A stretch of DNA of 32,710 bases from positions 1 to 32,710 of IMG/VR virus record IMGVR_UViG_2711768052_000004. One strand, written 5' to 3'. Below the pieces are notes generated by a model. That model was not told where the DNA came from. It did no database searches and worked only from the letters and a program-made list of their open reading frames with translations. Shown here one piece after another: positions 1 to 32,710 of this stretch (its first letter is position 1; every line of letters starts with the position of its first letter). The position numbers and the translations under genes were made by a program. The stretch is from a virus (Duplodnaviria; Heunggongvirae; Uroviricota; Caudoviricetes).

Positions 1-219
1 TTACATCCACATAATTTGCTGCCCTGACGGCAACGGGTGCGGCCTTACGGCGTGGACTTCTCCCGGCTTCACGATGTATCGCTGTACCGACTCATAAGTG
101 ATGAACGTGGCGCTGCAATTCACGTTCTGGCACTGGTGATAACGCTCTTTTGTCGTGTCAGTGATATAGCGACTTGTACGCGCATGTGCGGCATGCTGGC
201 ATAAAGGACAATGAAACAT
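1..219 (-). CDS. ogr: Late transcription activator Ogr (zinc-finger, 72 aa)
   Basis: ORF track gives 93 aa; the internal Met starting MFHCPLCQHAAHARTSRY matches the P2 Ogr N-terminus and CX2C...CX4C zinc finger as I recall it; ATG at 217-219 with GAGG about 8 nt upstream. Confidence 0.9.
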   Translation of the reverse strand: MFHCPLCQHAAHARTSRYITDTTKERYHQCQNVNCSATFITYESVQRYIVKPGEVHAVRPHPLPSGQQIMWM

Positions 220-300
220 CGCGAGCACCTCTTCCGGTTTTGTTGATGGTGCCATTTTAGTTAATTTATCCTTATAAAACAAACAGATAAAATAAAAACA
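220..300 (-). promoter_or_regulatory. Probable ogr promoter / D-ogr intergenic region
   Basis: AT-rich 81-bp spacer between D stop and ogr start; positional inference only, no motif verified. Confidence 0.3.
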
Positions 301-1464
301 TCACCCATCATCTTCTGTTTCGTACTCCACATCAGAAAGCCTGACCTCAAGCTCTAAGGACGTCGTGAAGCCGCTATTATTCAGAAAATGTGTCACCTTA
401 GTGATTGTCCAGTCCTGCTCGTCTATGACGCGCTTAAAGCCTGATACTTTGACCGGCGTTTCCGTGTAAATATCTGCCCGACCGGTAGCCAGGCTGATGG
501 AGAACTCCGCAACGCCCCGTTGCAGTTTATCCCACTTCGCCTGAGCGGCGCGCATGGCCTGCGCTTTTGTGGCATATACCGTAGTCAGGGCAAAAACATT
601 GTCAGCCTCACCAGCCATGTATTCACCTTCGCGCGCTTCCGGTACTTTTGGCGCTTTCTTCTGCGTGACTGGTTTCGCTTTCGGGTGCTCCAGTGCGCGC
701 AGGTGTTTCTCTTTCTTTTTGCGTTTCAGTTTTACCTTCTGCTTTTGCGGCTTCGGGTCTTTGGTGTGTAACCACTTTGCCGTTACGCCTGTGTAGGCTC
801 CACGGTCAGCAATCGCAAAATGATGACGGTCGCCGTCGCTGCGGGTGATGGTAATCTGCGGGATTTTTTTACCGCTGGCCGTCACCCCCTGCCCCGCTTT
901 GAGAAACAGCAGTTTTCCCATTTTTACCGACACCTCACCGCCGTTGCGTTCAGCAAGGCGGGTCAGGAATTTCGCATCGGACTCCTGCGACTGGTCGATG
1001 TGCGGGATTTTAATTCCGGCCAGTGACGGAGCGACACTGGCTTCCAGCCTGTTACGGGAGGCTATCGCCTCAACAATCGCACCGAGCGTGGTGTCATGCC
1101 AGGAGCCTTCACGGCGGGAATTGAGCGTCCCGCGAAAATCTGCACTCCGGGCGCGGATGGTGACCACATCCGGCGCGCCCCGGTGTTCAACCTCATCAAC
1201 GGTGAATTTCCCTTTGCATACCAGGGCAAAACCTTTCCAGCCGATATACACCGTCAGGACAGCGCCACGAACCGGTAGCCCGACCTGCCCGTCGGCATCG
1301 TTCAGTTCAATATCAAGCTGGTCAGCCTCAAAGCCCCGGTTATCCGTCAGGGTCATGCTCATCAGACGGTCGCTGATATTGCCGGTAATATCCCTGCTGT
1401 CGAGCATCAGCATGTAATCCGGTGTCAGCGTACTGCCTGCATCAAATGTCAGCGCATCCAGCAT
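301..1464 (-). CDS. D: Tail protein gpD (387 aa)
   Basis: 387-aa ORF; length and position after U match P2 gpD; start ATG overlaps U stop. Confidence 0.9.
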   Translation of the reverse strand: MLDALTFDAGSTLTPDYMLMLDSRDITGNISDRLMSMTLTDNRGFEADQLDIELNDADGQVGLPVRGAVLTVYIGWKGFALVCKGKFTVDEVEHRGAPDVVTIRARSADFRGTLNSRREGSWHDTTLGAIVEAIASRNRLEASVAPSLAGIKIPHIDQSQESDAKFLTRLAERNGGEVSVKMGKLLFLKAGQGVTASGKKIPQITITRSDGDRHHFAIADRGAYTGVTAKWLHTKDPKPQKQKVKLKRKKKEKHLRALEHPKAKPVTQKKAPKVPEAREGEYMAGEADNVFALTTVYATKAQAMRAAQAKWDKLQRGVAEFSISLATGRADIYTETPVKVSGFKRVIDEQDWTITKVTHFLNNSGFTTSLELEVRLSDVEYETEDDG

Positions 1465-1943
1465 TATCCCGCCCCCGTCATACCCGTGAATCTGGTCGTC
1501 ATACTGCCAGCCTTACCGATGAGCGATTCCGCCTGTTTACCGATATCGCCATAAAGCGCGGTCAGTGATTCATCAACGCGGGTGAGCGACAGCGTAAAAT
1601 CAATTTTCCGGGGTGTGCCGTCTGCAAAGAAAATACTCCCTGTTTCACTCACCCTGCTGATGACATACATGCCGTAAATCATGCCGGTGCCATCCAGCAA
1701 CGGCCACGCCCGGCCTTCCTCTGCCATCAGCCTGAGCGTGGTCATCGTCAGCTTGCCGCCGGTCAGTTCGGGATAAAGCACACCGGCCAGCGTCATGTTT
1801 TCCTCACCCACACCGAGAAACTGGTAGGCATCCCGTTTACCGATACGGGAATTTGACGGCCAGCGATAATCCGATTCACGCTGCATGGTCTGGTGTGGCA
1901 GTGTCTGGCGCATAAAAACAAACATACCTAACGCGAGCATCAT
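1464..1943 (-). CDS. U: Tail protein gpU (159 aa)
   Basis: 159-aa ORF between T and D, as in P2. Confidence 0.9.
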   Translation of the reverse strand: MMLALGMFVFMRQTLPHQTMQRESDYRWPSNSRIGKRDAYQFLGVGEENMTLAGVLYPELTGGKLTMTTLRLMAEEGRAWPLLDGTGMIYGMYVISRVSETGSIFFADGTPRKIDFTLSLTRVDESLTALYGDIGKQAESLIGKAGSMTTRFTGMTGAG

Positions 1944-1957
1944 TTTTCGTCACCTCC

Positions 1958-4405
1958 TTAACCGTCATGCATCATGCTGGCACGGGCGCGCGCACGTTTA
2001 TCCCGCTCGTATTTTTCGAGCGCATCCTGTAACTGGCGGTCAAGCTGTGTTCCCGGCGCAGTACCGCCCGTCAGGCTGATGTGATATTCGTTTTTACTCT
2101 GGTCCACATAAGAGCGGCCAGCCGGTGCCGTAACCGGCTGATAAGCCTGATAGCCTGCATAAGAGCTGGTCGCCGGAATATAACCACCGGTGCCATACGT
2201 GGCGGCTTGAGTTCTGGCGGCGGTCTGGTCAAGTGTGTCTGACTCTTTGTTGATAACACCGAGTTTTTCCAGTACCCAGTCAATGCCACTGCGCAGTTTG
2301 TTGAACGCATTAAGCGGCAGCATCAGCGCGTCAGCCAGTGCCTGCCCGAACATGACGCCCGTGTCACGGCAACGGTTCAGGGTGTCCTGGGTGGCTTTGA
2401 CCGGGGCAATCAGGTTTTTAAACCACTGCCACGCGGCCTGTAACTTTTCACCCAGCCAGTCAAACACCGGCTTCAGTGGCGTGAACAGTTCCCCCACCGG
2501 CGCAAATGCCGCTTTCAGCCCTTCAACCACACCGCCAAAGAATGCGCTGACAGGCTCCCAGTATTTACGGATAAGCAACGCCCCGGCGACAATGGCGGCC
2601 ACCACGGCCACAACCGGCCAGCTAATCGCCCCGATGGCCGTCATAACAGCACTGCTAACCGTCGTGAAGATTGCCCCCATTGCGCCTGCTGCCGCGATAA
2701 TGGCATTGATGCCAGTGATAACCGGCCAGGCTACAAGGCCAATGGCACCGATGATGCCAGTAAGCGCCAGTGCGCCACCGGCAATGAGGCCGATGGTTGA
2801 CGCCAGTGATTTATTTTTCTGTATCCAGCCGTCAAGTTTTAACACATACTTTGTGGCCGTCTGCGTGAGCTTACGCAGCGCGCCTTCCTGCTGGTCAAAC
2901 AGGTCAGTCCCCACCGCCTCATAAGCGGACTGAAACTCCTTAAAGTCACCGCCGAGGTTGTCCTGCATGATATTTACCAGCTCGGCGGTCTTCCCGTCTG
3001 AGGCTTTAAACGCAGCGGTCAGTTTGTCCAGCTTTCCGGTTGACGCGGCAGTCATCAGCACAGCGGCGGCTGAGCTGGCCTCCTCCCCGAAAATGGTTTT
3101 CATGTATTCGGCCTGCTGGGCAGTACCGAGCCGGTTTTTCTCAAAACTGGCCTGCATTTCTTTCAGAATGGTAAATACTGGTCGGGTGTTTCCCTTGCTG
3201 TCTGAGGTTTTCACACCAAGCTCTTTCAGTGCATCCCACGCTTTTCCCGTCGGTGCCTGCAGGCGGCTTAACACGGCACGGCTTCCCGTCCCCGCCATTG
3301 AGCCTGTGATTTTTGCATCATGCAGCGCCCCGACCATTGCGGCGGTTTCTTCAATGCTGACACCGGCATTTTTTGCCACAGGTGCGGCATAGGTCAGCGC
3401 ATCGCTCATGCCGTCAAAATTGGCGGCGGTTTTGTTCATCGTCATGGAGAGAACATCCCCGATATGAGCGACCTTATCGTTTGAAAGCTGAAAGGCAGAT
3501 TTCATCCCCATCAGCAGGGCGGCGTTTTCTTCCATCGTGCGGCGGTTCGCCAGCGCCATGTTCAGCGTGACCGGCGTTGCCGCCTGAATGGCATCAACAT
3601 CCCCACCGGCTTTCGCAATAATAATCTGCGCACCGGCTGCATCATCTGCCGAGGCGGCGGTATTGTCGCCGAGCTGGCGCGCCTGTTTGCGTAATGCGGC
3701 CATTTCGGCGGAGTCTTTTGCCACACCGAGCACAGCCTGCAATTCTGAGTTTTTCTGCGCAAACTCATAACCGGGCATCAGCAGCTTAACACCGGCCATC
3801 GTTCCCGCAGCAGCAATCCCCACACCGGCAGCGCCCACTGAGGCCATATTTCCGGCCAGTTCCTTTCCGGCCTGATAACGCTGTTTTACTGCGTTAAGTT
3901 TTGCCTGTTGTGCACTGACACGCGCCAGTGCGTCGCGCTGACGGTTAAGCTGTGCGGTGGTTTCACTGATACGGTTTTTCAGCCCCTGCTCATCATGTGC
4001 AAGATTGCGGGTATTAATTCCCACAGCGGCCAGTTCCCGCTGCTGGCGTTTAACGGAATCCGTCAGGCGGTTATATTTCGCCTGTAAGTCCTCCGCCGCT
4101 CGCTTTGCGGATTCCAACACTTTCGCCTGAGCACGGGTCGGTCGTTCGGTATTTTTAAACTGTGTGGCAAGGGCTTCGGCCTCCTGCCGTGCCTTTTCAA
4201 GTGCATGACCAGTCACGGCGAGCTGTGCACTGGTCTTGCGGAATCCCTCAATACGGGATGCGTGACCGTTCAGCTCGCGCAGTGATTTTTGTGTTTCCCG
4301 GATATCCCCCGACAGCGACTTACTCGCTGTGCGGATGGATTTAAACGGGCGGGATGCCTGGTCAACAGCCCTGAGCAATACCTGTAATTTTACATTGTTA
4401 CTCAT
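1958..4405 (-). CDS. T: Tail tape measure protein gpT (815 aa)
   Basis: 815-aa ORF, Ala/Gly-rich with coiled-coil N-terminus and hydrophobic central region; follows E/E' as in P2. Confidence 0.92.
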   Translation of the reverse strand: MSNNVKLQVLLRAVDQASRPFKSIRTASKSLSGDIRETQKSLRELNGHASRIEGFRKTSAQLAVTGHALEKARQEAEALATQFKNTERPTRAQAKVLESAKRAAEDLQAKYNRLTDSVKRQQRELAAVGINTRNLAHDEQGLKNRISETTAQLNRQRDALARVSAQQAKLNAVKQRYQAGKELAGNMASVGAAGVGIAAAGTMAGVKLLMPGYEFAQKNSELQAVLGVAKDSAEMAALRKQARQLGDNTAASADDAAGAQIIIAKAGGDVDAIQAATPVTLNMALANRRTMEENAALLMGMKSAFQLSNDKVAHIGDVLSMTMNKTAANFDGMSDALTYAAPVAKNAGVSIEETAAMVGALHDAKITGSMAGTGSRAVLSRLQAPTGKAWDALKELGVKTSDSKGNTRPVFTILKEMQASFEKNRLGTAQQAEYMKTIFGEEASSAAAVLMTAASTGKLDKLTAAFKASDGKTAELVNIMQDNLGGDFKEFQSAYEAVGTDLFDQQEGALRKLTQTATKYVLKLDGWIQKNKSLASTIGLIAGGALALTGIIGAIGLVAWPVITGINAIIAAAGAMGAIFTTVSSAVMTAIGAISWPVVAVVAAIVAGALLIRKYWEPVSAFFGGVVEGLKAAFAPVGELFTPLKPVFDWLGEKLQAAWQWFKNLIAPVKATQDTLNRCRDTGVMFGQALADALMLPLNAFNKLRSGIDWVLEKLGVINKESDTLDQTAARTQAATYGTGGYIPATSSYAGYQAYQPVTAPAGRSYVDQSKNEYHISLTGGTAPGTQLDRQLQDALEKYERDKRARARASMMHDG

Positions 4406-4825
4406 TCGTGTTTCCGCTTCGCCGGAGCGCCTTTTCGCGCCATGTGATGAGTTCGGTCAGGCTCATGGGGTACAGTTCTGATGGCGGCCAGTGAAATATC
4501 ACAGCCACATCCGCCATCAGGTCATCGACCGACAGATTTTTCGGAAACGTCACTGCACCGAGTTCGGCGACAAAAAACCGACCACCTTACCGGCCAGCGC
4601 CACAAGGTCAGGCAGTTCCAGCGCGGCGACCTCCTGCTCGGTCAGCATCGGTGCTGTCATGCGCGGCAGCACCTTAATCAGTGCATCGACTTCGGAGTTC
4701 GCGACCGCTGCCAGACTGACACCGCGCAGCGTCCCGGCATTGGGTTTCATCAGCGTGACCTGTTCGATAACCTGCTCACCACGCTTGACCGGATTGTCCA
4801 GGGTAATCACATTTTCTTTGTTCAT
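4398..4825 (-). CDS. E+E': gpE+E' fusion made by programmed -1 frameshift (about 142 aa)
   Basis: Hand translation in the -1 frame from the slippery site gives VAELGAVTFPKNL...RSGNTNE and a stop at 4398-4400, overlapping the T start at 4405. Confidence 0.8.
4550..4825 (-). CDS. E: Tail assembly chaperone gpE (91 aa)
   Basis: 91-aa ORF between FII and T; contains the T6G slippery site near its 3' end. Confidence 0.9.
   Translation of the reverse strand: MNKENVITLDNPVKRGEQVIEQVTLMKPNAGTLRGVSLAAVANSEVDALIKVLPRMTAPMLTEQEVAALELPDLVALAGKVVGFLSPNSVQ
4571..4577 (-). other. Slippery heptamer TTTTTTG (minus strand) for the E/E' -1 frameshift
   Basis: Plus strand reads CAAAAAA at 4571-4577; on the minus strand the zero frame is GGT TTT TTG (G-F-L, residues 83-85 of gpE). 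Confidence 0.8.
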
Positions 4826-4881
4826 GGTTTTCTCACTTCTGAATCGGGGTTAACCGGTCAGCCTGGCTGACCGGATGAAAA

Positions 4882-5400
4882 TCACAGGCCGATATTGCGG
4901 CGGTGTTGCTCCAGCCGGTCGACGCCGTTCACCTTCTCAATCATGTTAATGGTGTCGATTTCGACCAGCTCCTTACCGTCCATCGTCAGCCGGAAATAGG
5001 TGCAGACCACGGAGATTTTCGACTCGGTGTCTTCTCCCTGTTTACCCTCGCCGGTGTCGATTTCTTTCTGACGGCCACGCATGACCACCTCGACGGCCAC
5101 CGTTTCGCCGGTATCGTCGCGCTGGTAAGAGCCAGCAAAACGAATCGGTACGGCATCCACACCGGTTGCGGCGTAAAGCTCCCAGATAACCGAATCCGGG
5201 AAGCCCCCGAGCGACCACTCCATTGACAGCGCATCGTCATCAAGGCCGAGGTCTACCGGTGCGCTGCCGTTCATCCCCGCACCGCGATAGTTTTCGAGCT
5301 TACGGGTCAGTTTTGGCAGCGTGACGGACTTTGCAACGCCCTGATAGCTGTAGCCGTTCAGAAAGACGTTCATTAACTTGAGTTTGCGCGGCATTGCCAT
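4882..5400 (-). CDS. FII: Tail tube protein gpFII (172 aa)
   Basis: 172-aa ORF directly downstream of FI, as in P2. Confidence 0.92.
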   Translation of the reverse strand: MAMPRKLKLMNVFLNGYSYQGVAKSVTLPKLTRKLENYRGAGMNGSAPVDLGLDDDALSMEWSLGGFPDSVIWELYAATGVDAVPIRFAGSYQRDDTGETVAVEVVMRGRQKEIDTGEGKQGEDTESKISVVCTYFRLTMDGKELVEIDTINMIEKVNGVDRLEQHRRNIGL

Positions 5401-5412
5401 CGGTCAGGCTCC

Positions 5413-6603
5413 TTAATTGCTGTTAACCGAGGTGACCAGATTTGCCAGGTATTTATCGGTAATACGCTGGCGCAGGGTCAGGTTTTCGAGAGGAGGCACC
5501 GGTGTATAGTCGTAGTCGATATACAGTTTTCCGGCCTTGAGGGTTTCCGCATCGTTGGATTCTTCGCTGAACCAGCATGAGCCATCCACGATATAGCCGT
5601 TTGTTTTCAGCTCACGGAATTTGGCATTGATGCCGTCAACGATGTCGCGAATCAGCGTTGCGGTGATGGGCTTGTCCACCGCCCACATGTGCGCCTCAGC
5701 CATCGTATCGGCCAGCACCTGCGCGGTGCGGGTGTAGTTTTCAAAGAGGAACAGCGGGTCATCAGAGCAGGTACGGTTACCCCAGAAGCGGAAACCGTCG
5801 CGGCGAATCAGCGTTGTGACACCTGACTCATTCAACAGGTCAGCATCGGTGCCGGACTCCTGCAAATCCCAGAATACAGAGGCACTGATGCCGGTAACAC
5901 CGTTTACCCCGACGTTGGACAGCGTTTTATGCCAGCCCTGCTCCTGGTCGATTTTAGCGCGCAGACCCAGCGCACGGGCGGTGGCATACGCGGTGGCGGT
6001 GGTACTGGTGACCGTATCCCATGCGAGGAAATCCGGCCAGATAACCATCAGTTCACGCTGGCTGAAATTCTGGCGGTAGGCTTTCACCTCGGAAATGGTT
6101 TTACAGCCCCATGCGCTGATATACCCGAAAGCGCGCAGCTTCTGACAGACTGATGCCAGTGCAACAGCCACCTCTTTGGTGTCCAGTCCCGGCACGCCGA
6201 GAATACGCGGTTTAACACCAGTTACCGACTCCGCCGCCAGCAGGGCTTTCAGTCCGGTGTACTGACCGTTTTCGTCGGTGGTGCCGATGATATTGGAAAC
6301 GGTCTGCGCGAGTTTCGTTTCCTCGTCGTCGCCGGTGCCGTCTTCCACACGCACAACAACGGTGACCGGTTTTGACTGGTCGGCGATGGCCTGCAACGAT
6401 GCCGCCAGCGTGCCTTTTTTACCGGCCTTTGCAATTGCACTCTGCACATTGGTAATCAGCACCGGTTTATTGAGGGGGAAGGTTTCCGCATCCGCATCGC
6501 TGGCCGTGCAGACCATGCCGACAATGGCAGTGGATACGGTGGAAATGACGCGGGTGCCGTCGTTAATCTCCAGCACCTGCACGCCGTGATGATAGTCACT
6601 CAT
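5413..6603 (-). CDS. FI: Contractile tail sheath protein gpFI (396 aa)
   Basis: ORF track gives 434 aa; the internal Met (MSDYHHGVQVLEINDG) has ATG at 6601-6603 with GGAG upstream, and 396 aa matches P2 FI as I recall it. Confidence 0.9.
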   Translation of the reverse strand: MSDYHHGVQVLEINDGTRVISTVSTAIVGMVCTASDADAETFPLNKPVLITNVQSAIAKAGKKGTLAASLQAIADQSKPVTVVVRVEDGTGDDEETKLAQTVSNIIGTTDENGQYTGLKALLAAESVTGVKPRILGVPGLDTKEVAVALASVCQKLRAFGYISAWGCKTISEVKAYRQNFSQRELMVIWPDFLAWDTVTSTTATAYATARALGLRAKIDQEQGWHKTLSNVGVNGVTGISASVFWDLQESGTDADLLNESGVTTLIRRDGFRFWGNRTCSDDPLFLFENYTRTAQVLADTMAEAHMWAVDKPITATLIRDIVDGINAKFRELKTNGYIVDGSCWFSEESNDAETLKAGKLYIDYDYTPVPPLENLTLRQRITDKYLANLVTSVNSN

Positions 6604-6698
6604 CCGTTTAACTCCGTGGTTAATGGGTGAGTGGTATTTTGTGTTGTGCAGAGCATGAGACGCTATTTGACCTGGCTGGTCAGTGGATGAAACAACAG
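6604..6698 (-). promoter_or_regulatory. Expected late promoter P_F region (Ogr-dependent)
   Basis: Positional inference from P2, where a late promoter sits upstream of FI; contains TTGTTGT/ACAACA elements but no binding site was verified. Confidence 0.4.
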
Positions 6699-6727
6699 AT
6701 AAAGAAAAGGCGGACAATCCGCCCGCC
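6699..6727 (-). terminator. Rho-independent terminator downstream of the cargo gene and upstream of P_F
   Basis: Minus strand reads GGCGG-ATTGT-CCGCC followed by TTTTCTTTAT. Confidence 0.6.
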
Positions 6728-6787
6728 TGTCATGATTTGTACTCACTTATTTCCCGACTGACAATTTACATAGCCAAAACGCTATCA

Positions 6788-6799
6788 AATCTGACAGTC
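6788..6799. repeat. Left arm of inverted repeat flanking the G-FI cargo gene (AATCTGACAGTC)
   Basis: Exact reverse complement of 8714-8725; partner arms extend imperfectly for about 10 more bp. Confidence 0.6.
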
Positions 6800-6957
6800 T
6801 GCTTTGAGCGAGAAGCGGACTTTAGAGCTCATCATATATAACTACGATAACCAACATACTGGAATAAGTGTAGTTTACATCCTGTCTTTACTGCCCAAAA
6901 TTATTCTTATTGTTCTAGCTAATTATTTAGTGGTGAATAAATATCTTGTTAACATGT

Positions 6958-7029
6958 ACTAACTCAGCACAAGACTCCACTGAGTTAGTATATTTTTATA
7001 CTCCCCTGCGAATTTAGCAGGGAAGTATA
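6958..7029. other. Two adjacent stem-loops just 3' of the cargo gene
   Basis: ACTAACTCAG-N12-CTGAGTTAGT (6958-6989) followed by ATATTTTTATA on the plus strand; TATACTCCCCTGC-N7-GCAGGGAAGTATA (6997-7029, one mismatch). Confidence 0.5.
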
Positions 7030-7060
7030 TTACAAATTAATTTATAGTGGTTATATTAAT

Positions 7061-8500
7061 CTATGATTCACCATTTACCCTTTTATTCTCAGAGCAATAT
7101 AACCATTCAGAAACATTAATTATAGCCTCCGGATGCGAGTGTGTTGAGTGTATTAATATACCATCATTCTGTGGAGCAAATTTAATAACTTTATGATCTC
7201 CAGCTGGAGTTTCAGATGATGCAATAAAAACTTCCGGGCAAAATATTAATCGCAAATCTCCATAAGCTATGGCCTTAGCTACAGCCAACCAAAATGAAAA
7301 AATCGCAACTGGTATTGCTGCAATAAGTAAAACATGAGGAACATCCTTTGATGGTTTCAACCTTTGCCAAATGTGAGAAATAGAAGTTAATACAAAGCTT
7401 ACTAATAATACTATAATCCATGATTTTTCTTCAGGATAGAAGAACCATATTAATACACTCATGGAAATATAAAATAGGTAGCTTAAAACTGCTGACCAAT
7501 GTGTTAGCTTTTTATGACTTACTTGAGCTTTTTTTAGCTGGGAAAGAATTGCAAAACATCCTTCGTGAAGTGAACTTACAAATCTTAGGCCTGAATCGGC
7601 TTCATCACCAATTGCGTGATAAATTTCAACATTCCTAAAATCAACCGCTTCACAGTGCTCGCCACTCTCAACTTCCTGCAAAAATTCTTTTTTATATTTT
7701 TTGGAGATTATAATTTCTGCAAATATTGAAACAAAAAAAATTACTGCTGCATAATTAATATTATATAGATTCAAAGGTACAAAAAATACTGCAAGTAACA
7801 ATTGAATGGCCAAAGTTCCGCTAATATCAATAAGATTAATTAAAGCACCTGACGTTCTTTTTATCCTACGTCGAAAGATGAACGGTGGTGACAAAAGACA
7901 TACGCCTTGAATTTTTTTTGCAATATCACTTCGTAAATAAGACATTTCTCTTACAATAGCTGCCCCATGGCTATGTGCAATAATATAATTGTATTTTGCA
8001 GGAGAGTTATCAATATGCATTCCTAATTGATATGCCGCTTGTTTACGAGAGGATGCAGAGTTTTTGCCATCCCATTTAAATCGAGATATACCAATATTGG
8101 GATTCCTTGAGTTAATTGATTTGCACATTTTTGACTCAGGTTGTGTCCAAGATGCATTCGTCTCGAATGTTCCATGAACAAGGTGAACAATAACATCTTC
8201 TGATTCAGCATTAGCAATATCATTCACGGTTGTTGTTTTAGTCGAGTGGAATATAAAACGCCATGCCGTTGAAATCCCTTTTTGCCAGACAACATAATGG
8301 ACGAGTGCAACGATTAGTATTATTGCGACTGGAATAGTTACAAGGCCTATGGAAATAGTTTTAATTATATACTGAAGAACTCCTTTATTATGGGTGAAAA
8401 AATAATATGCTACAGAGGAAATAAAGAGCACTAGCATAGCCAACATTATCCCAGACAAGCCAAATAATATAATATATTTAATAAAATCGTGATTTCCCAT
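7061..8500 (-). CDS. Cargo protein (479 aa): polytopic membrane protein with a lipase/esterase-like domain; candidate defence effector
   Basis: Long AT-rich ORF in the G-FI slot; about seven hydrophobic helices by eye; soluble segment carries VHLVHGTFE and IIAHSHGAAIV (an A-x-S-x-G nucleophile-elbow-like pentapeptide); AAGG RBS upstream of ATG at 8498-8500. Confidence 0.8.
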   Translation of the reverse strand: MGNHDFIKYIILFGLSGIMLAMLVLFISSVAYYFFTHNKGVLQYIIKTISIGLVTIPVAIILIVALVHYVVWQKGISTAWRFIFHSTKTTTVNDIANAESEDVIVHLVHGTFETNASWTQPESKMCKSINSRNPNIGISRFKWDGKNSASSRKQAAYQLGMHIDNSPAKYNYIIAHSHGAAIVREMSYLRSDIAKKIQGVCLLSPPFIFRRRIKRTSGALINLIDISGTLAIQLLLAVFFVPLNLYNINYAAVIFFVSIFAEIIISKKYKKEFLQEVESGEHCEAVDFRNVEIYHAIGDEADSGLRFVSSLHEGCFAILSQLKKAQVSHKKLTHWSAVLSYLFYISMSVLIWFFYPEEKSWIIVLLVSFVLTSISHIWQRLKPSKDVPHVLLIAAIPVAIFSFWLAVAKAIAYGDLRLIFCPEVFIASSETPAGDHKVIKFAPQNDGILIHSTHSHPEAIINVSEWLYCSENKRVNGES

Positions 8501-8713
8501 TGAATTGCCTTCTATTTGGATAATCGATTATTTAACCTTTCGATTTTGTGGTTTCAACTTGAGGTTCAAACAAGAACATTGCTCGCTAGCAGTTATGAGT
8601 GAATCACTGTTAAGCGATCGTGATTTCAGCTATAGATGATCTGAACTACATGAATGCTGACTCACTAGCCTATTTTACATAATTGTGTGGATGTCTGCTA
8701 TTGGCACATAGCG

Positions 8714-8725
8714 GACTGTCAGATT
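8714..8725. repeat. Right arm of inverted repeat flanking the G-FI cargo gene (GACTGTCAGATT)
   Basis: Exact reverse complement of 6788-6799; lies in the G-to-cargo intergenic region. Confidence 0.6.
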
Positions 8726-8777
8726 AGGCTTTACTCTGTGCTATAGATATGTAAGCTCACACCAGAGATCATACAAC

Positions 8778-9305: not shown

Positions 9306-9308
9306 AAA

Positions 9309-11354: not shown

Positions 11355-11364
11355 TATTCCTCAC

Positions 11365-12796: not shown

Positions 12797-12800
12797 GGTT

Positions 12801-14934: not shown

Positions 14935-14938
14935 TGAT

Positions 14939-17688: not shown

Positions 17689-17691
17689 GCG

Positions 17692-19247: not shown

Positions 19248-19250
19248 CGG

Positions 19251-20324: not shown

Positions 20325-20382
20325 ATTTTTTCCTGAAATTAAGGGTTAATCGTGAAGGTTTGCCCGGACTGGCTGACGCCGG

Positions 20383-24217: not shown

Positions 24218-24222
24218 ACATC

Positions 24223-24244
24223 GCCGCCTGCGGGCGGCTTTTTT
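24223..24244 (+). terminator. Rho-independent terminator of the P-Q operon
   Basis: GCCGCC-TGCG-GGCGGC followed by TTTTTT, starting 6 nt after the Q stop. Confidence 0.75.
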
Positions 24245-24409
24245 ACACCCCGTCATCACGGCCTCACACGCTCACCACCGCACAAAACACCCCGCAGACA
24301 CACCAACGCCCCGGCAGGCCGACTAAATGCCATCACGACGCGCTCAGACGCAAAAAAACTGTCACTACCACGCCGTTACGTTGGCCACATAAAATGTGGC
24401 CAACTCCAG

Positions 24410-25411: not shown

Positions 25412-25657
25412 TTTATTTCCTATAAAAACTTAACCAGCAAATTAAACAAAAAGAACACAAGGTTATTATTTAGCGTGCAACAACACGATTGCACAACCAA
25501 ATGCCACGTGTACGAATCTAACCATTCTCTTATATTAAATCAAGTCAATACAACCTAATAGACACATTTTTTATCGCAGTTATACACTTGGTTAACAATA
25601 TGCGGATAGTTACTCAAATCAAATTACATATATGACAAAATGAACAATTGCGCGCAG

Positions 25658-25676
25658 TGCTATCCCCGCCTCGCCT
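25658..25676. other. cos-like site (19-nt cohesive-end sequence)
   Basis: GTGCTATCCCCGCCTCGCC is the reverse complement of GGCGAGGCGGGGATAGCAC, an 18/19 match to the P2 cohesive end as I remember it (GGCGAGGCGGGGAAAGCAC). Confidence 0.65.
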
Positions 25677-25890
25677 GCCCGCTTTATGGGTCGGTTTTAA
25701 TGCAGGTGCACGAATACACCGGAGGCGCGCCGGCACTGGTGGCGCTCAGACGCAACAGGGGAGGAAAACGCATGCAATTGAATGCATTTCTAGGCACACC
25801 TAAAAATGAAAAAATGTTATGACAATTAATCATTTTAAACACACTGATTAAGGGTAGAATTCTCCTAGTAAAATCATAGAAAAACCGCTA

Positions 25891-26820
25891 TCAAACCAGG
25901 CTTTTGCCTTGCTTCATTTTTTTAGATGAGTCTAAAAATTTGAAATTATCATTAGATGAAAATATTCTTTCTGCGGTATGCCGAATGACTGAAGTATTGA
26001 AGACCGCAGCCTGCTCCTCATTACAACTGAATACACCCTCATGACCATCAAACTCGCCCGCCAAAAGAAGGTTTTTTGATACTGGGAACAAAACTAAAGT
26101 GTCTTTTACACCAAACCCGGGGGAATAAGGGCCTCGTGCTAATTCAGGATTAGTCCACATTAAGCAAACTGGGTTATCTGAAGTTATAAATGACCCTTGC
26201 CCATCAGATATGGTCATAAGTGACCAGTTGCGTTGATGCAACAACTTGGTGATAACAGGTACACATTTCATTTCCATATCTATCATGAACTCTCTGATTA
26301 CATTGATTTCGAAATTATCCCCATCCACAAAATTTTTAATTTTTTCGTAAGCGAGATCATATGGCAAAGACTCACCCATTTCTTTCTCATAAGCTAATTT
26401 ACAATCGTCCCAACGCTCAGCCGAACTAACTGAGGATTTCATGATAAACTTTGCTATTTGTTTCAATGGAGATGATAAATGTTCTCGCTGAGCAGGCGTA
26501 CGTATTGCCAATAAGGAAATAAACTCCAGAATAACATCTTTGGTTTCGCCTGAAAACTCGCCCCCCTCCTCAAGTTTTCTTAAATGAGTAGCGACACTGC
26601 CTTCAAACTCTGCAAGAGAACTCTCGAGATAGTTTGGGTCAACTCCATCCAATTCTAATCGGTTGAAATCTCTAACCCCCCCGACATTGCGAGTATTACT
26701 CTCAAAAGTTTTGCGCTCCTTTAAATCTATTACAGTTAATTTTGATTTTTTCCCCCCATTACTTGTAAACCCTTTCAAATAACATTGGGATAAAAAATGA
26801 TGATGCCTTGCAACACTCAT
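25891..26820 (-). CDS. Cargo protein (309 aa from ATG 26820) with DUF4238-like N-terminal motif; candidate single-gene defence protein
   Basis: AT-rich ORF between A and the cos-like site (the P2 tin/old slot); N-terminus MSVARHHHFLSQCYLKGFT fits the H-x3-Q-x-YL-x2-F signature I associate with DUF4238; GGAG 6 nt upstream of the chosen ATG. Confidence 0.75.
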   Translation of the reverse strand: MSVARHHHFLSQCYLKGFTSNGGKKSKLTVIDLKERKTFESNTRNVGGVRDFNRLELDGVDPNYLESSLAEFEGSVATHLRKLEEGGEFSGETKDVILEFISLLAIRTPAQREHLSSPLKQIAKFIMKSSVSSAERWDDCKLAYEKEMGESLPYDLAYEKIKNFVDGDNFEINVIREFMIDMEMKCVPVITKLLHQRNWSLMTISDGQGSFITSDNPVCLMWTNPELARGPYSPGFGVKDTLVLFPVSKNLLLAGEFDGHEGVFSCNEEQAAVFNTSVIRHTAERIFSSNDNFKFLDSSKKMKQGKSLV

Positions 26821-26923
26821 ACTCAGCTCCGTTATGGCTATAATCGCATAAATAATAAGCACTTATATTGCAATCATCTAGTTAAATACACAATATTTAT
26901 GACTCCGAAATTTCATTAAATCA

Positions 26924-29095
26924 CTATTGATAGGTTTTACCAATTAGTGCCAGCTCGAAATGGATGCGTGGAATCTGCGAACGTTCAGCCTTTGTCATCC
27001 GCCCTGATGGCGCTATCTGGTACGGTTTTAATGGTTCGCAGTTTCTTTGTTGCCAATTCGGTCTCGGTGCACCATGTTTTAATGCACTCCTGAGCACCGT
27101 CACAACTTCCGGGTCATCCCATCCGATAACACCACTATCAACCAGATTTAACACCGCTGCGGCATGCTCAGACGGTGTAGGGTGCATAACCGGAACGTCA
27201 CCGCCGGTGAACTTTCCACAGTTATTGACAGGACTCCGAGGCGCGGCGATGCCGCTTTTTAAAGTCAAAGGCTCAACGACCGGAACTTTCGGCACAATGC
27301 GCCAGTCCGTCGTTCTGGTGATATGAATATGACGCGCGCCGAGATGCGGCGCGTAAATGCCGACCACTCTCTCGACTTCTTCCTCGTACTCGTTAACTTC
27401 ATCCGACGGACTACGGGCGACCCTGACAGTCTGACAATCGCGCGGGACATTTGCCCCACCCTGCGCGCTGATATACAACGCAAAATCACCACTGTCTGCG
27501 GCGGCGCGTGCAGCCTCGACTCGCTCGTCAAACTCATCAGCAATGCTGACGCCGCGAGGCAATTTTCGTAGTTCACGGTAAGCCCCCATTGTCGGCAGAC
27601 CAACCGTTTTAAATTGTGGGATGCGCCACGTTGACGCCCATGCGGTAACAGCCGCAGCAGTGTCTTTCAGCGGTCTGCCGGTATCGTTATCGAGCTGACC
27701 ATCCAGTGCATAGCCATCGATGTTTTTTGAGATGTATTTCGCGATATACCCCGCAGCACCGCCCTGGTTAAGGTGTTTTGCCTGAAAACGGTTTCGCGCG
27801 GCTCCTCTTTCGTCGCCATCCTCTTTGAGCGCATAGCGACGCATGATTTCGATAATCTGGTTACGCTGGCGTGGATTACAAAAAAGCATCATATGCCAGT
27901 GCGGCGTTCCGTCGTGGTGTGGCTCGACGACACGCAAACCGTAGACCTGTAAATCATTATCCTTGAATGCCGTGCGCATCAGGCTCCAGATATGGCAGAG
28001 ATAACGCTGCGCATCCTTTGGATTAAATGCCTCATCGTTCCAGCCGTGATTTAGCTGGACGGTTTTACTTTCGCCTTTTCCGACCTGACGTGTCGGGTGA
28101 TACTTTGACGGCGCGGTAAGCGTGATAAACATCCCCACATCACCCTCTGCGGCGGCGTAACGCTCAATACCGGCAATGGTGTTCATCAGCTCCATCCGGC
28201 GAATTTCAGGATTAGAAATACTGCCCATCACCTTACTGATAAGGTCGATGCGCTCGCCGGTTTCCCTGTTTTCAAGGTCACACGATTTAAGAAATTCCAG
28301 ATTTGCCTGGCGGCGTGCACGCACATCACGAATGGCATGTTTACTGGCATAAGGAGAACGGTCTTTATTCACCTCCCCGACAGCAATCAGTAACGCCTCA
28401 TGCCAGCGCATACGCTGGCCTTTGAGCTGATGAGTCCACCACTCATCGTTAAACAGACGGGCAATGGCAGAATATGCCTGCCTCGTGGTCATCTGTCCTT
28501 TACGGTATTTTTTCCAGTAAAGCGGGGAAATATTGAAAGCACGTGCAGCGCCAGCAACATGACCATAGAGGTGAGCCTGCGCCTCATCCGTAAACAGCGA
28601 TTCTTTTTCGCCATGTGCATCCACCCAGGCATCGCTGAGTTCCTCATACATCATGAAAAGCTGCGATGAGATACGGGCGGCAAACTTTTTCAGCTCCTTG
28701 TCATTCATTCCCGGCAGGCGCGCATAGTGGTCACGCTCTGCCAGAAACAGCAACGACGCGTCGGTGTTCATTTCATGGCGCTGATTCACACGCTCAATGC
28801 GCGGCCATAAACGACGCTGAAAAGTGGATGTGAGGAAATAAAACCCGTGCACCGGGCTTTTATTGCGCCGGATGTAGTCATAGCGTGAAGTAAACAGCGA
28901 GCGCAAAAAGTAAGGCAGGCGGTTAATCGTGGATAAAACACCTTGCACCTGACGCATCTCGTCACGTGTAAGGGGTCTTTCGCGCCCGACGGCCTCGCGT
29001 GGCGCGTTCCATGCATAAGCACCGGTAAACGTCTCACCGGTGCCTGCGGCAAATGCTGACGGAGGGACAAAATGCCCGGAGGCTTTAACGGTCAT
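26924..29095 (-). CDS. A: Replication initiation protein gpA (rolling-circle nickase family)
   Basis: 737-aa ORF; likely start at the Met of MTVKASGHFVPP (ATG at 29093-29095), with 29137 as an alternative; position at the end of the early operon. Confidence 0.88.
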   Translation of the reverse strand: MTVKASGHFVPPSAFAAGTGETFTGAYAWNAPREAVGRERPLTRDEMRQVQGVLSTINRLPYFLRSLFTSRYDYIRRNKSPVHGFYFLTSTFQRRLWPRIERVNQRHEMNTDASLLFLAERDHYARLPGMNDKELKKFAARISSQLFMMYEELSDAWVDAHGEKESLFTDEAQAHLYGHVAGAARAFNISPLYWKKYRKGQMTTRQAYSAIARLFNDEWWTHQLKGQRMRWHEALLIAVGEVNKDRSPYASKHAIRDVRARRQANLEFLKSCDLENRETGERIDLISKVMGSISNPEIRRMELMNTIAGIERYAAAEGDVGMFITLTAPSKYHPTRQVGKGESKTVQLNHGWNDEAFNPKDAQRYLCHIWSLMRTAFKDNDLQVYGLRVVEPHHDGTPHWHMMLFCNPRQRNQIIEIMRRYALKEDGDERGAARNRFQAKHLNQGGAAGYIAKYISKNIDGYALDGQLDNDTGRPLKDTAAAVTAWASTWRIPQFKTVGLPTMGAYRELRKLPRGVSIADEFDERVEAARAAADSGDFALYISAQGGANVPRDCQTVRVARSPSDEVNEYEEEVERVVGIYAPHLGARHIHITRTTDWRIVPKVPVVEPLTLKSGIAAPRSPVNNCGKFTGGDVPVMHPTPSEHAAAVLNLVDSGVIGWDDPEVVTVLRSALKHGAPRPNWQQRNCEPLKPYQIAPSGRMTKAERSQIPRIHFELALIGKTYQ

Positions 29096-29360
29096 ATGAG
29101 CCAAAAGCCTCTGAACAACGCTTGCTGAGTTGCTCAACCTGCGCGTTTAAATCAGCAAAAGACTTTGCGCTTCCGGTCAGAATATCGTGATGCATCAGGC
29201 CGGAAACGAGCTGGCTTAATTTCGGGTAATAACCAACCACCGCCAGCCATTCCTGACCGGCGTTTTTACCGCTTTCCGCTCTCTTTTTCTCGTGGAGAAT
29301 AAACTGAAAGCTGTCACTGGTAACGACATAACGTTCGCCAATTTCAATACGAATACTCAT
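29085..29360 (-). CDS. Early-operon small protein (91 aa), P2 orf83-position analogue
   Basis: ORF translationally coupled to the upstream ORF (ATGA overlap) and overlapping the A start. Confidence 0.6.
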   Translation of the reverse strand: MSIRIEIGERYVVTSDSFQFILHEKKRAESGKNAGQEWLAVVGYYPKLSQLVSGLMHHDILTGSAKSFADLNAQVEQLSKRCSEAFGSYDR

Positions 29361-29581
29361 GCCGTTCTCCGGTAATGTTTGTTTTTTGCTTCAAAGACTG
29401 CCTGACAGGAAACACAACGCGTGGCTGACGGATAAGCCGCACGACGGGCAGCAGGTATTGGCGCGTCACACTCTTCGCAAACCAGCGCAGAAGCACCGCA
29501 ATGTTTTACCCTTGCCGCGTTAATCTGGCGCTCCAGTAATTCAGCCTGTTGTTCCTGAATAAAATCTATGTTGTCCGGCAT
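29357..29581 (-). CDS. DksA/TraR-family C4 zinc-finger protein (74 aa), P2 orf82-position analogue
   Basis: CEECDAPIPAARRAAYPSATRCVSCQ contains a CxxC-N17-CxxC motif typical of TraR/DksA-like proteins. Confidence 0.7.
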   Translation of the reverse strand: MPDNIDFIQEQQAELLERQINAARVKHCGASALVCEECDAPIPAARRAAYPSATRCVSCQAVFEAKNKHYRRTA

Positions 29582-29886
29582 TACCAGTTCCTTTTGTCGT
29601 TCAGTTTTTTAAATTCATCAGCGCAATAGCTGGCGATTTCTGTCGTTAATTTCGTCAGTTCATCCACGGAGGAGATTTGCTTGTGAAATACAGCGCGTTT
29701 AACAAGTAAATTGACCACATCAGACAGGAGATTTAATTCGTTCTGATAAATCGCGATAACAGACTCAGTTATTTCGCGTTTTTCTTTATCAAGACCAAGT
29801 TGAATAAGAGATAAATCGCCATTTTTCATAACGGCGATTTTTAAGGCGTTATTCAGTAATACAACTGAACGAGAACAGGACATCAA
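29581..29886 (-). CDS. Early-operon hypothetical protein (101 aa), P2 orf81-position analogue
   Basis: ORF with start overlapping the stop of the upstream ORF (ATGA). Confidence 0.6.
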
Positions 29887-30107
29887 AGCACCTCCCCGCG
29901 AGACAATCCGATATTGTGAAATTTTTCCGACTCCTGACTGAGCAGCTCGACTATCTCCACGCGGGATAACTCCGCCTTTGTGATGTGGCGAATCATGGCG
30001 TCAAGATGAGAAGAAAAGCGCGTCGCTGCGTCGGCCTGTGCTTCGGTTCTGGCCTGTTGCAGCAGTAATGCGTATTTACCGCACTGATTTTCAGAAACTG
30101 TATGCAT
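29883..30107 (-). CDS. Early-operon hypothetical protein (74 aa from ATG 30107), P2 orf80-position analogue
   Basis: ORF track gives 85 aa; the internal ATG at 30105-30107 has GGAG 6 nt upstream. Confidence 0.55.
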
Positions 30108-30170
30108 GACTTTCTCCAGGCAAAAAGAAGCCCCGCACAATTAAGTGCGTTAAAAACTCTGGTTAATTAC

Positions 30171-30671
30171 TTAATGCAGATATTGCTCTGGTTTTACCGA
30201 CGTCAGAATTGTCGGTGCATACTCAAACAGACTGAATAATTCACGTAATGCACGGAATAAAGCATCACGCCAGTAACATGACTCTTCATTAATTCGCCAG
30301 TATGGCTGGTTGAATTCTTTTTCAGTCAATCCGGCATGCATAAATAAAGTACGACGCTGACTGACTGTTAAAAAACTAATATATGCATACTCACTTGCGC
30401 CAACCTGACGGCGTTTTGAGAATGCATCACGCAATTCATCAATTGCACATACCAGTCGTTCACGTTCGACGTCGTTCATTTCTTCAAAACGCATCGTTGC
30501 GTGACGCTGTTTTAACTGAGCATGGAAGCAAACCGTTAACCGTTCGCGCTCCATCATCTGATTATAATAATCACATGTATCCTGCCAGCGAGGAACGGCA
30601 AGATGCTTACCAATTATCCGGCGCATAGCTGCTGGCTGTTTTTCAACGAGATTGAGCGTCATCACTGTCAT
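30171..30671 (-). CDS. B: Replication protein gpB (166 aa)
   Basis: Start MTVMTLNLVEKQPAAMRRIIGKHL matches the P2 gpB N-terminus as I recall it; ATG overlaps the stop of the upstream small ORF. Confidence 0.85.
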   Translation of the reverse strand: MTVMTLNLVEKQPAAMRRIIGKHLAVPRWQDTCDYYNQMMERERLTVCFHAQLKQRHATMRFEEMNDVERERLVCAIDELRDAFSKRRQVGASEYAYISFLTVSQRRTLFMHAGLTEKEFNQPYWRINEESCYWRDALFRALRELFSLFEYAPTILTSVKPEQYLH

Positions 30672-30838
30672 TTCCATACCCTCCGGCTTTTCAGAAAGGT
30701 CAGAGCCTTCTTTAACGGACTCTGTTTTTTGGTGCGGATAATGATTCCCTTACGCCCCTTACCGTGGGTGATGGTGAAGTCAATCGCCCTGGGGCTTTCA
30801 TTACGCAATAGCTGAGCAATACAACGAGGCTCGTTCAT
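30668..30838 (-). CDS. Small early protein (about 56 aa), P2 orf78-position analogue
   Basis: ORF between cox and B; chosen ATG at 30836-30838 has AAGGTGG 4 nt upstream; longer in-frame starts would overlap cox. Confidence 0.5.
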   Translation of the reverse strand: MNEPRCIAQLLRNESPRAIDFTITHGKGRKGIIIRTKKQSPLKKALTFLKSRRVWK

Positions 30839-30848
30839 CCTTTCCACC

Positions 30849-31205
30849 TTAAGCCGCACGGCCATGTCTTGATTTGCTGTAACTAATGCGATTTTTCCAG
30901 TCATGCCATTCTGTCGGAGCTTCATCAACTAGTTGGGCTGCGTACCTGTCCCACTCACGGCGATTAATCCATAACTCAGCATGACCGCCCGGCTTTAATG
31001 GGTCCGTCATATAAAAGGCTGGTAACTTGCCTGCTTTCGCCATTTCAGCAACAGCACGAGGCGTCTTACCGATGTAAAGAGCAAATCCCTCTTTCGAGAG
31101 CAAATCCGACGGTGCGGCTGCAAGTTTGATGTCACATTTTTTACTTTTTGTGAGATCAGATACTTTTTCTCCAACATCGTTATTCATTTCTGATCCAATA
31201 CTCAT
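30849..31205 (-). CDS. cox: Cox/Apl-like excisionase and early transcriptional regulator (118 aa)
   Basis: First gene of the early operon, divergent from C; HTH-like segment FALYIGKTPRAVAEMAKAGKLP; GAGGA upstream of ATG at 31203-31205. Longer than P2 Cox as I recall it. Confidence 0.65.
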   Translation of the reverse strand: MSIGSEMNNDVGEKVSDLTKSKKCDIKLAAAPSDLLSKEGFALYIGKTPRAVAEMAKAGKLPAFYMTDPLKPGGHAELWINRREWDRYAAQLVDEAPTEWHDWKNRISYSKSRHGRAA

Positions 31206-31309
31206 TTTGATATCCTCAACTTTGGTGCCATTCAACCAGAGCTATTTGAAGCCGCTCTGCGTTGTTCTGGCGTGTCGCATGCAACATAAATTACGAGATA
31301 CGACAATTC
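31206..31309. promoter_or_regulatory. Immunity switch region (expected face-to-face promoters Pe and Pc with C and Cox operators)
   Basis: 104-bp spacer between divergent cox and C; architecture inferred from P2/186; individual promoter elements not resolved. Confidence 0.5.
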
Positions 31310-31621
31310 ATGTCAAATACACAAATCACATCTCAAGCAGAGAAACTCGCACTTATTCGGGAGTCAGAAAGAATGACAAGGAAGCAAGTTGCTGAATTAA
31401 CTGGAATTAACTACAACACCTATGCTGGATATGAGCAGGGAAAAGTAAAGATGTCTTTTGACGCAGGCATGAAATTTTTCAAGCCAGAAAGATTTCGCAA
31501 GTACCGTGACTGGTTCATGTTTGATGAAACTGATCCCGCTGGCGGACAAATAGCCCCGGCGCTCGCGCACATTGGGCAAGACTCAACAACCTTGCACCAC
31601 TCAGACCAAAAGACTGGCTGA
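31310..31621 (+). CDS. C: Immunity repressor C (103 aa)
   Basis: ORF track gives 119 aa; the internal Met (MSNTQITSQAEKLALIRESERMTRKQVAELTG) gives an HTH protein whose C-terminus GGQIAPALAHIGQDSTTLHHSDQKTG closely resembles P2 C as I recall it. Confidence 0.85.
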   Translation: MSNTQITSQAEKLALIRESERMTRKQVAELTGINYNTYAGYEQGKVKMSFDAGMKFFKPERFRKYRDWFMFDETDPAGGQIAPALAHIGQDSTTLHHSDQKTG

Positions 31622-31714
31622 CGATTTATTCAGCATATGTGTGCAGTAAATGTACGAAAGAAAATTGCATTAATTTTCAAGTAGTAGAAGTAAACAGCGT
31701 CATCGGAGGGCTTT

Positions 31715-32710
31715 ATGTCTATTAAAAAGCTCGATGATGGTCGTTATGAAGTGGACGTCAGACCGCAGGGTGCAGATGGAAAACGTATCAGGCGGAAATT
31801 TAAAACTAAAGGTGAAGCTCAAGCATTCGAACGTCATGTACTGGTTAACTACCACAACAAAGAGTGGCTGGAGAAGCCAGCCGACCGCCGAACTCTTACA
31901 GAGTTGTTAGGCAGATGGTGGATATATCACGGAAAATCACATGAGCGTGGAGATATTGAACGGGGGCGTTTGACGACAATAATCGCCAAATTTGCAGAAA
32001 TGGGAGTGTCCAGAGCTGACCAGCTAACAAAGAAAACGATAACTGATTATCGCGTTGTAATGATGAACGATGGTCTAAAACCAGCCAGCGTAAATCGGCA
32101 TCTGGCAATAATGAGCGGGATGTTCACCAAGTTAATTGACGCCGGTGAATACCATTCTCACAACCCGTTCCGTGAGGTTAAGCGATTACGTGAAGCTGTT
32201 ACAGAAATGGCTTTTTTGTCCAGTGAAGAGATTACACGGCTGTTATCCATGCTCGATGGTGATGAATTAAATGCGACTCTGGTCTGCCTTTCTACTGGTG
32301 GACGCTGGAGTGAAGTGTCTAATTTAAAAGCTGAACACATCATTAACCAGATGGTTACGTTTATGAAAACTAAAAACGGAAAGCGCAGGACAATTCCCGT
32401 TTCGCAGGACCTGATTAAACGGATCAAGACCAAAAACTCAGGCAGGCTTTTTAATGCCAGTTACTACAAAGTGCGCAACGCTCTCAGGGAAGTAAAACCC
32501 GATTTACCTGACGGACAGGCAGTGCATGTTTTGAGGCATACATTTGCCACACATTTTATAATGAATGGAGGTAACATAATCACATTGCAGCGCATCCTGG
32601 GTCATTCTAACATTCAGCAAACTATGACCTACGCACACTTTGCACCGGATTTCTTACAAGATGCTGTGACTCTTAACCCGGTGTCAGGAATGTCCATAAT
32701 GCGTCCATAA
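31715..32710 (+). CDS. int: Tyrosine integrase (331 aa)
   Basis: Start MSIKKLDDGRYEVDVRP with GGAGGG RBS; C-terminal HxLRHTFATH...Y catalytic-region motifs of tyrosine recombinases; downstream of C as in P2. Confidence 0.92.
   Translation: MSIKKLDDGRYEVDVRPQGADGKRIRRKFKTKGEAQAFERHVLVNYHNKEWLEKPADRRTLTELLGRWWIYHGKSHERGDIERGRLTTIIAKFAEMGVSRADQLTKKTITDYRVVMMNDGLKPASVNRHLAIMSGMFTKLIDAGEYHSHNPFREVKRLREAVTEMAFLSSEEITRLLSMLDGDELNATLVCLSTGGRWSEVSNLKAEHIINQMVTFMKTKNGKRRTIPVSQDLIKRIKTKNSGRLFNASYYKVRNALREVKPDLPDGQAVHVLRHTFATHFIMNGGNIITLQRILGHSNIQQTMTYAHFAPDFLQDAVTLNPVSGMSIMRP

Follow-up and report, generated by a model that had tools for sequence, protein, structure and literature searches.

What have the variable sites of a P2-like prophage taken up, and does this cargo serve to keep other phages out? 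The question is raised by the window, our term for the whole 32,710-nucleotide stretch of DNA that was analysed (IMG/VR record IMGVR_UViG_2711768052_000004), in which four AT-rich genes, here called A, B, C and D, interrupt a P2-like genome. We read it as an apparently intact P2-like prophage with four horizontally acquired, independently moving AT-rich single-gene cassettes; gene D is a defence gene, and genes A, B and C are most likely stand-alone phage-exclusion genes. We give this reading a probability of about 0.6. The phage's own gene A is always termed replication gene A below.

Four AT-rich genes in a P2 backbone

The window runs from the ogr stop codon (position 1) to the end of the integrase gene (position 32710) and is collinear with phage P2. 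Alignment to the P2 reference (NC_001895) by blastn gave the blocks 1–6819, 9930–13738, 15032–24358 and 26962–30852, in P2 order, at 96.7–97.6% identity and totaling ~23.8 kb. The P2 structural, lysis and replication genes are all there as open reading frames (ORFs) of the expected length, and the exact proteins A, B and C are present in E. coli assemblies. Collinearity, the full gene set and the E. coli relatives mark the element as a P2-like (Peduovirus) prophage of E. coli, apparently complete.

Gaps without P2 alignment were found at 6820–8692 (the G/FI site), 13739–15031 (the S/V site) and 24359–26961 (the Q/A interval), and a composition profile in 500-nt windows showed three troughs coinciding exactly with them. 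The P2-homologous backbone has a GC content of 0.551 (1-kb windows: mean 0.555, standard deviation 0.033, minimum 0.433), while the four intact ORFs of the islands lie ~5–6.5 standard deviations below it, at 0.342 (A), 0.351 (B), 0.328 (C) and 0.389 (D). A preliminary description of this DNA had proposed that AT-rich genes, four in total, fill the variable slots; both the windowed GC content and the alignment, which leaves the cargo genes in the unaligned gaps, bear this out. Island 1, at the G/FI (Z/fun) site, spans 6820–8692 (GC 0.338), has no P2 homology and holds gene A (7061–8500, minus strand). Island 2, at the S/V (orf30) site, spans 13775–15036 (GC 0.341; no P2 homology over 13739–15031) and holds gene B (13861–14934, plus strand). 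Within the Q/A interval, island 3a (24359–25649, GC 0.331) replaces P2 positions 27–47 in a rarely occupied gap and holds gene C (24410–25411, minus strand), and island 3b (25705–26961, GC 0.387), again without P2 homology, is the classical cos–A (tin/old, or 'TO') site and holds gene D (25891–26820, minus strand).

Phage P2 is organized in much the same way. Its orf30, fun(Z), tin and old likewise make four cargo genes at the same three genomic sites, non-essential, surrounded by conserved backbone and similarly AT-rich (GC 0.33–0.35, compared with 0.33–0.39 here). They differ in having no sequence similarity to A–D: blastp and tblastn with Tin, Old, Fun(Z) and Orf30 gave a best E of ~0.03, over 23 residues. 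Recognizable tin, old and Z/fun had been described as absent from the window, and indeed tblastn with P2 Orf30, Fun(Z), Tin, Old and Orf91 found nothing better than E = 0.29. Orientation differs too. The P2 cargo genes are all opposite in strand to their neighbors, whereas here gene A runs in the direction of the tail genes and gene D in that of the replication gene; moreover, gene C is on the portal side of cos, where P2 carries nothing. The three characteristic moron regions of P2-like phages, and their role as anti-phage hotspots, are already published. Having all slots filled is not special, since P2 itself has cargo at the same sites. The pairing of gene D with gene C, as "DUF4238 + hypothetical WP_053285577", is already in Table S5A of Rousset et al. 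(2022). The locus is a typical P2-like prophage, a textbook case with one known defence gene and three uncharacterized candidates.

The four cassettes are independent, each being found elsewhere without the others. Among 5426 complete E. coli genomes, the cargo DNA of A was present in 2, that of B in 60 and that of C in 10, with C and D together in none; gene C has different neighbors in different loci. A prophage of E. coli STN0717-20 (L019) matches the window at 98.4% over 1–6730 and at 99.3% over 11459–25704 (14.2 kb), sharing B, C and cos. Homology then stops at 25704 and restarts at 27075, a 2.35-kb AAA ATPase gene replacing gene D. Gene A is missing from that prophage, whose G/FI site has only tail-fibre-assembly fragments and no cargo; other E. 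coli prophages have DUF4145, HNH or Shedu genes there. In E. coli TB06052 gene A is accompanied by other cargo, and in E. coli L725 gene D is alone. Genes A and C had no match in 50,697 deposited phage genome records. No conserved partner gene was found for A, B or C in the neighborhoods of their homologs, so each looks self-contained. This is the rapid swapping of cassettes that Moura de Sousa et al. (2026) describe; they also report that, of the P2 elements having complete systems, 10% bear several across their hotspots.

Gene D and the interval split by cos

Gene D (309 residues) is a DUF4238 single-gene anti-phage system. It matched the PADLOC model DUF4238-Pers (PDLC03000) end to end, over positions 1–309 of 309, with E 1.5e-219, and the Pfam family DUF4238 (PF14022) with 135.1 bits (cut-off 27). 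In Table S5B of Rousset et al. (2022), system 50 (DUF4238, 80 occurrences) is represented by a protein of identical sequence, and gene D occupies the same gpA–gpQ hotspot. The DUF4238 protein tested in that study, that of pFR101, gave strong resistance to T7. That protein and gene D share 284 of 309 residues, so the identity to the T7-tested protein is 92% and not 100%; gene D is a known DUF4238 defence gene whose activity would carry over from this T7-blocking relative. It stands alone between cos and gpA with no partner gene, as it does in L725 and in Table S5 of Rousset et al.

The 19-nt cohesive-end sequence cos, GTGCTATCCCCGCCTCGCC, was located at 25657–25675 on the minus strand, with 18 of 19 bases matching the reverse complement of P2 cos. 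A conserved TGCGCGC lies on one side and 30 nt homologous to the P2 right end on the other; over 25657–25704 the identity to the P2 right end is 89.6%. A tQ-like terminator 3' of the portal gene (24221–24238, plus strand), a GC-rich hairpin followed by TTTTTT, corresponds to the annotated tQ of P2. Gene C is between this terminator and cos, and gene D between cos and replication gene A; thus the A–Q interval is two separate sites, and there are four insertion sites overall. The preliminary description had counted three slots, G–FI, S–V and A–Q. These are indeed the classical variable sites, with the correction that the last is split in two. In the packaged linear genome gene C would be at the extreme left end and gene D at the extreme right.

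Cargo seldom lies on the portal side of cos. We measured how far cos is from the end of Q in 79 IMG/VR loci, neither dereplicated nor random, whose portal protein is at least 99% identical to that of the window. The distance was 160–177 bp (about 173 bp), an empty gap, in 78 of them; the remaining locus (L064) had 1879 bp, filled by a two-gene cassette of a DUF262-like gene and a gene for a 204-residue protein. Over the same loci the distance from cos to replication gene A was 1.0–5.8 kb. Four genera, Escherichia, Klebsiella, Pantoea and Yersinia, had homologs of gene C (family C) portal-side of cos, and in E. coli this held for every locus inspected. In Klebsiella pneumoniae a perfect P2 cos stops 10 nt before the start codon of the family C gene, and the family C gene of a Pantoea remnant is also portal-side. 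Other cargo can use the gap, which in E. coli TB06052 is occupied by an AAA ATPase. Besides window positions 24359–25675, the loci bearing on the Q–cos gap are L001, L002, L004, L005, L064, L102 and L103. Published surveys handle gpA–gpQ as a single cos-proximal hotspot.

The predicted membrane proteins A, B and C

Kyte-Doolittle hydropathy in 19-residue windows, with a cut-off of 1.6 or more, called about seven hydrophobic segments in the product of gene A, two in that of B, three in that of C and none in that of D. This agrees with the earlier proposal that three of the four genes encode transmembrane helices joined to a soluble domain. AlphaFold models of B and C have long helices at the positions of the segments called by hydropathy. 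Lys/Arg-rich flanks, interpreted by hand with the positive-inside rule, would place every large soluble segment of A, B and C in the cytoplasm. The predicted topology gives each protein a conserved cytoplasmic domain of ~210–300 residues and very short periplasmic loops.

Gene A (479 residues) is a candidate membrane-embedded serine hydrolase. Its 58 homologs are all named hypothetical, lipase family or alpha/beta hydrolase. An alignment of 39 homologs, down to 32% identity, showed the motifs HGTF, AHSHG (S177), GDEAD (D299) and HSTHS (H451/H454) to be invariant or nearly so, with the positions of the hydrophobic segments also kept. The nucleophile elbow (small-x-Ser-x-Gly) and an upstream HG oxyanion motif are present and align to the motifs of 6tj2 and 7x2p; the invariant D299 and H451/H454 are on segments parted from the nucleophile by membrane helices. 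The putative catalytic residues are borne on three soluble segments, split by membrane hairpins; Lys/Arg-rich flanks suggest a place in the cytoplasm for these segments. The family profile gave a weak match to the alpha/beta hydrolase 6tj2 in the PDB, over its N-terminal part only (E 4.5e-4). Curated families gave only sub-threshold hydrolase hits, such as 19 bits to Pfam Ser_hydrolase (cut-off 22), and PADLOC, PHROGs and NCBIfam gave no match.

Lipase-type membrane effectors exist in known systems, for example the patatin-like phospholipases of CBASS, the anti-phage systems that signal through cyclic oligonucleotides. Gene A would plausibly act on the membrane as they do, but no signalling partner gene adjoins it. 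A second likeness is to the haloacid dehalogenase (HAD)-like hydrolase plus transmembrane system of P4 satellites (Rousset et al. 2022), in that gene A too joins a hydrolase with membrane association at a phage cargo site. It differs in being a single polypeptide rather than a two-gene system, with a Ser-Asp-His signature of alpha/beta-hydrolase type split by hairpins rather than a HAD fold, and neither gene A nor its family matched the PADLOC models of that system.

The second genome copy of the gene A cassette, with 99.5% identity, was found in a lambdoid prophage of E. coli Rb-50 (L020 positions 9001–10916, aligning with window positions 6797–8712), where intS is on one side of it and a truncated tail-fibre-assembly gene on the other. 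Unrelated phage types therefore exchange this cassette, and homology in their tail-fibre-assembly genes is perhaps the route.

Its orientation could give gene A a different role. It shares its strand with the late genes G and FI on either side and is bounded by the end of the V operon and by a terminator-like hairpin (6708–6728, minus strand) with a 9-bp stem, six of its pairs GC, followed by a T-run. This putative terminator is in conserved backbone, inside a P2-homologous block, 3' of gene A and upstream of pF/FI. P2 fun(Z), by contrast, runs opposite to its neighbors. Gene A could then be transcribed with the tail genes and benefit the phage late in its cycle, for example in lysis or release through attack on membrane lipids. 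We regard such a late function as very improbable: the gene is dispensable, being present in so few of the complete E. coli genomes, unrelated cargo takes up the same site in more than 1600, and homologs are not confined to phages, occurring also in a defence island of Burkholderia and an islet of Klebsiella.

Gene C (333 residues) combines an N-terminal alpha/beta domain with three C-terminal membrane helices. Its AlphaFold model (mean predicted local distance difference test score, pLDDT, 80.2; predicted template modelling score, pTM, 0.70) shows an alpha/beta domain of seven strands and, after it, three long helices. Family C comprises 1013 clusters at 50% identity (E <=1e-3), nearly all of ~330 residues and without a Pfam domain, and gene C had no match in Pfam, PADLOC, PHROGs or NCBIfam. 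No solved structure matched the model significantly. The top Foldseek hit was CorA (E 3.9e-3, probability 0.23, TM-score 0.11), which has the same order of cytoplasmic alpha/beta domain, long stalk helices and C-terminal membrane helices; as the fold match is not significant and gene C is without the GMN motif, this is an architectural analogy only. A search for a fused domain in family C turned up one 548-residue member with an N-terminal extension, but the extension had no Pfam match.

Gene B encodes a 357-residue protein, helical throughout, that contains a coiled coil along with a membrane hairpin (residues ~219–279). It matched an unnamed PHROG and nothing in PADLOC, Pfam or NCBIfam. An alternative GTG start at 13765 was rejected; it overlaps the start of gene V, and the ATG at 13861 yields the N-terminus conserved in homologs. 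A relationship between B and C was also rejected, hhalign giving a probability of 0.7%. Distant relatives of gene B, with 26–28% identity over 60–68% of the protein, were noted in ~110-kb Klebsiella phage-plasmid records (H50–H53).

These architectures suggest how exclusion might work. A, B and C would be expressed from the prophage as stand-alone phage-exclusion proteins, each with a sensing or catalytic cytoplasmic domain tethered by an inner-membrane anchor, in effect a sensor fused to a membrane effector. Infection would be stopped by membrane damage or depolarization, a form of abortive infection. The effector of gene A would be its membrane-embedded Ser-Asp-His hydrolase, a lipase or esterase facing the cytoplasmic leaflet, while in B and C it would be the membrane helices themselves, after oligomerization. 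Expression in the lysogen, membrane topology, anti-phage activity and the abortive-infection mode are all what we infer for these three proteins.

Small prophage membrane proteins can also block DNA injection, in the manner of T4 Imm, P22 SieA and HK97 gp15. A, B and C are all prophage-encoded and predicted to be in the inner membrane, and one or more of them might act by superinfection exclusion there, blocking the entry of incoming phage DNA rather than killing the infected cell. We think this unlikely. The cytoplasmic domains are large and conserved and the periplasmic loops very short, a passive blocker would have no need of the invariant putative catalytic triad of gene A, and homologs are found in chromosomal defence and toxin–antitoxin islands outside prophages.

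The genomic company of the homologs favors stand-alone exclusion genes. A gene A homolog in Burkholderia pseudomallei is in an island that also encodes integrases, HsdR, a DEAD helicase and TIR, HNH and PIN proteins; another adjoins a CHAT-like protein gene in Chromobacterium, and a third is in a Klebsiella integrase/resolvase islet. Gene B homologs were found in a Pantoea P2-like prophage, at the same S/V site, in Yersinia P2-like phages and in a satellite-like element near putAbiC. For family C, a Limnohabitans island contains PIN, Fic, HsdM_N, DUF6602, NERD and BrnT genes, an Acidovorax homolog is in an integrase islet, and P2-like prophages of Yersinia and Klebsiella hold others. Architecture, conservation and association with prophage moron sites and defence islands make it plausible that A, B and C act in defence.

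Several observations weigh on the other side. Families A, B and C, searched against 5027 PADLOC models, had no match beyond chance; 57, 60 and 39 family members, respectively, gave only single chance hits (E > 0.003) against PADLOC-DB 2.0.0. Searches by accession and peptide substring did not find A, B or C among the systems tested by Rousset et al. (2022) or in the searchable part of the DefensePredictor supplementary tables, and no searchable paper cites their accessions. P2 hotspots also bear non-defence cargo, for example partition systems and cytolethal distending toxin. Promoter and terminator scans did no better than on shuffled sequence, so they give no evidence on expression in the lysogen. 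For gene A in particular, the number of helices is ambiguous between residues 335 and 411, and its strand, that of the late tail operon and unlike fun(Z), would suit a late lytic function.

Some of the same observations would suit lysogenic-conversion or fitness cargo with no anti-phage role, acting for example in envelope or lipid remodelling, stress tolerance or colonization. Partition systems and toxins share the P2 hotspots, a membrane lipase or esterase could remodel envelope lipids, and none of the three proteins matches a defence model. We nevertheless judge this improbable for A, B or C, since in distant genomes their neighbors consist chiefly of restriction, TIR, HNH, PIN, Fic, NERD and Abi-type genes, and since they spread as rare, near-identical copies across different mobile elements, as has been described for defence cargo. 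The preliminary description had spoken of several independent candidate defence modules. Independence stands, the cassettes occurring separately, and gene D belongs to a validated family; for A, B and C, lacking a PADLOC match, the tie to defence is one of association.

The surrounding prophage and the meaning of its cargo

The backbone around the islands follows P2 closely. Positions 1–6819 (minus strand) carry ogr, D, U, T, E/E', FII, FI and the pF promoter region, at 96.7% identity to P2 24254–17433 and with matching ORF lengths. Positions 8693–13774 (minus strand) carry G, H with a diverged C-terminal tip, I, J, W and V, in blocks at 86% and 96.7% identity; the 86% block, separate in the blastn alignment, is formed by the tail-fibre assembly gene and the fibre tip. 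Positions 15037–24217 carry S, R, lysB/C, lysA, K, Y, X, L, M, N and O on the minus strand and P and Q on the plus strand, at 97.6% to P2 9372–48. Replication gene A, the early genes, a non-P2 immunity region and the integrase gene make up 26924–32710, at 97% to P2 over 26962–30852 and ~67% thereafter. Rfam and tRNA scans found no RNA genes in the whole window.

Four stretches of this backbone depart from P2. The tail-fibre tip (the C-terminus of H) and assembly gene G, at 8693–10250, have a GC content of 0.44 and 80–86% identity to P2; they are a host-range module and not cargo, since P2 also has tip and assembly genes. The P2-homologous block leaves out 13739–13860, which comprises the 86-bp V–B intergenic region and the initial 12 codons of baseplate gene V, indicating that the late pV promoter region was exchanged together with the gene B cassette. 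At 26924–27075 the last ~50 codons of replication gene A are unlike those of P2 and also unlike those of the near-identical STN0717-20 prophage, and orf91 (DUF3850) is missing. Replication gene A thus encodes 723 residues with a different C-terminus (761 in P2), and the DUF4238 cassette brings its own 3' end of the gene (723 versus 755–761 residues); a replication gene A of identical form (2172 nt) is annotated as intact in E. coli L725. Finally, the immunity and integrase region at 30853–32710 retains only a ~67% remnant of P2 similarity by blastn, and is 95.6% identical to that of the prophage lying between pflB and pflA in STN0717-20. The prophage of the window is heteroimmune to P2, and its attachment site is probably a different one.

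Three points go beyond the published accounts consulted: the split of gpA–gpQ by cos, the rarity of Q–cos cargo and the repeated presence of family C in that gap, and the membrane-split hydrolase layout of gene A. From these we advance, tentatively and at somewhat less than even odds, a joint proposal. At least one of A, B and C would found a new family of single-gene membrane-anchored anti-phage proteins, gene A being the most distinctive with catalytic segments split by membrane hairpins; and in P2-like phages the gap from portal terminator to cos would form a cargo site of its own, seldom used, at the extreme left of the packaged DNA and preferentially taken by family C, so that the gpA–gpQ hotspot would be two sites.

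The split by cos matters to automated hotspot surveys, which at present pool cargo from both sides. STN0717-20, TB06052 and L725 form a natural near-isogenic set of cargo swaps, which makes practical the combinatorial test of protection envisaged in the preliminary description. Should A, B or C prove protective against phages, the defence catalogue would gain up to three compact membrane effectors, each a single gene, one of them with an unusual membrane-split hydrolase.

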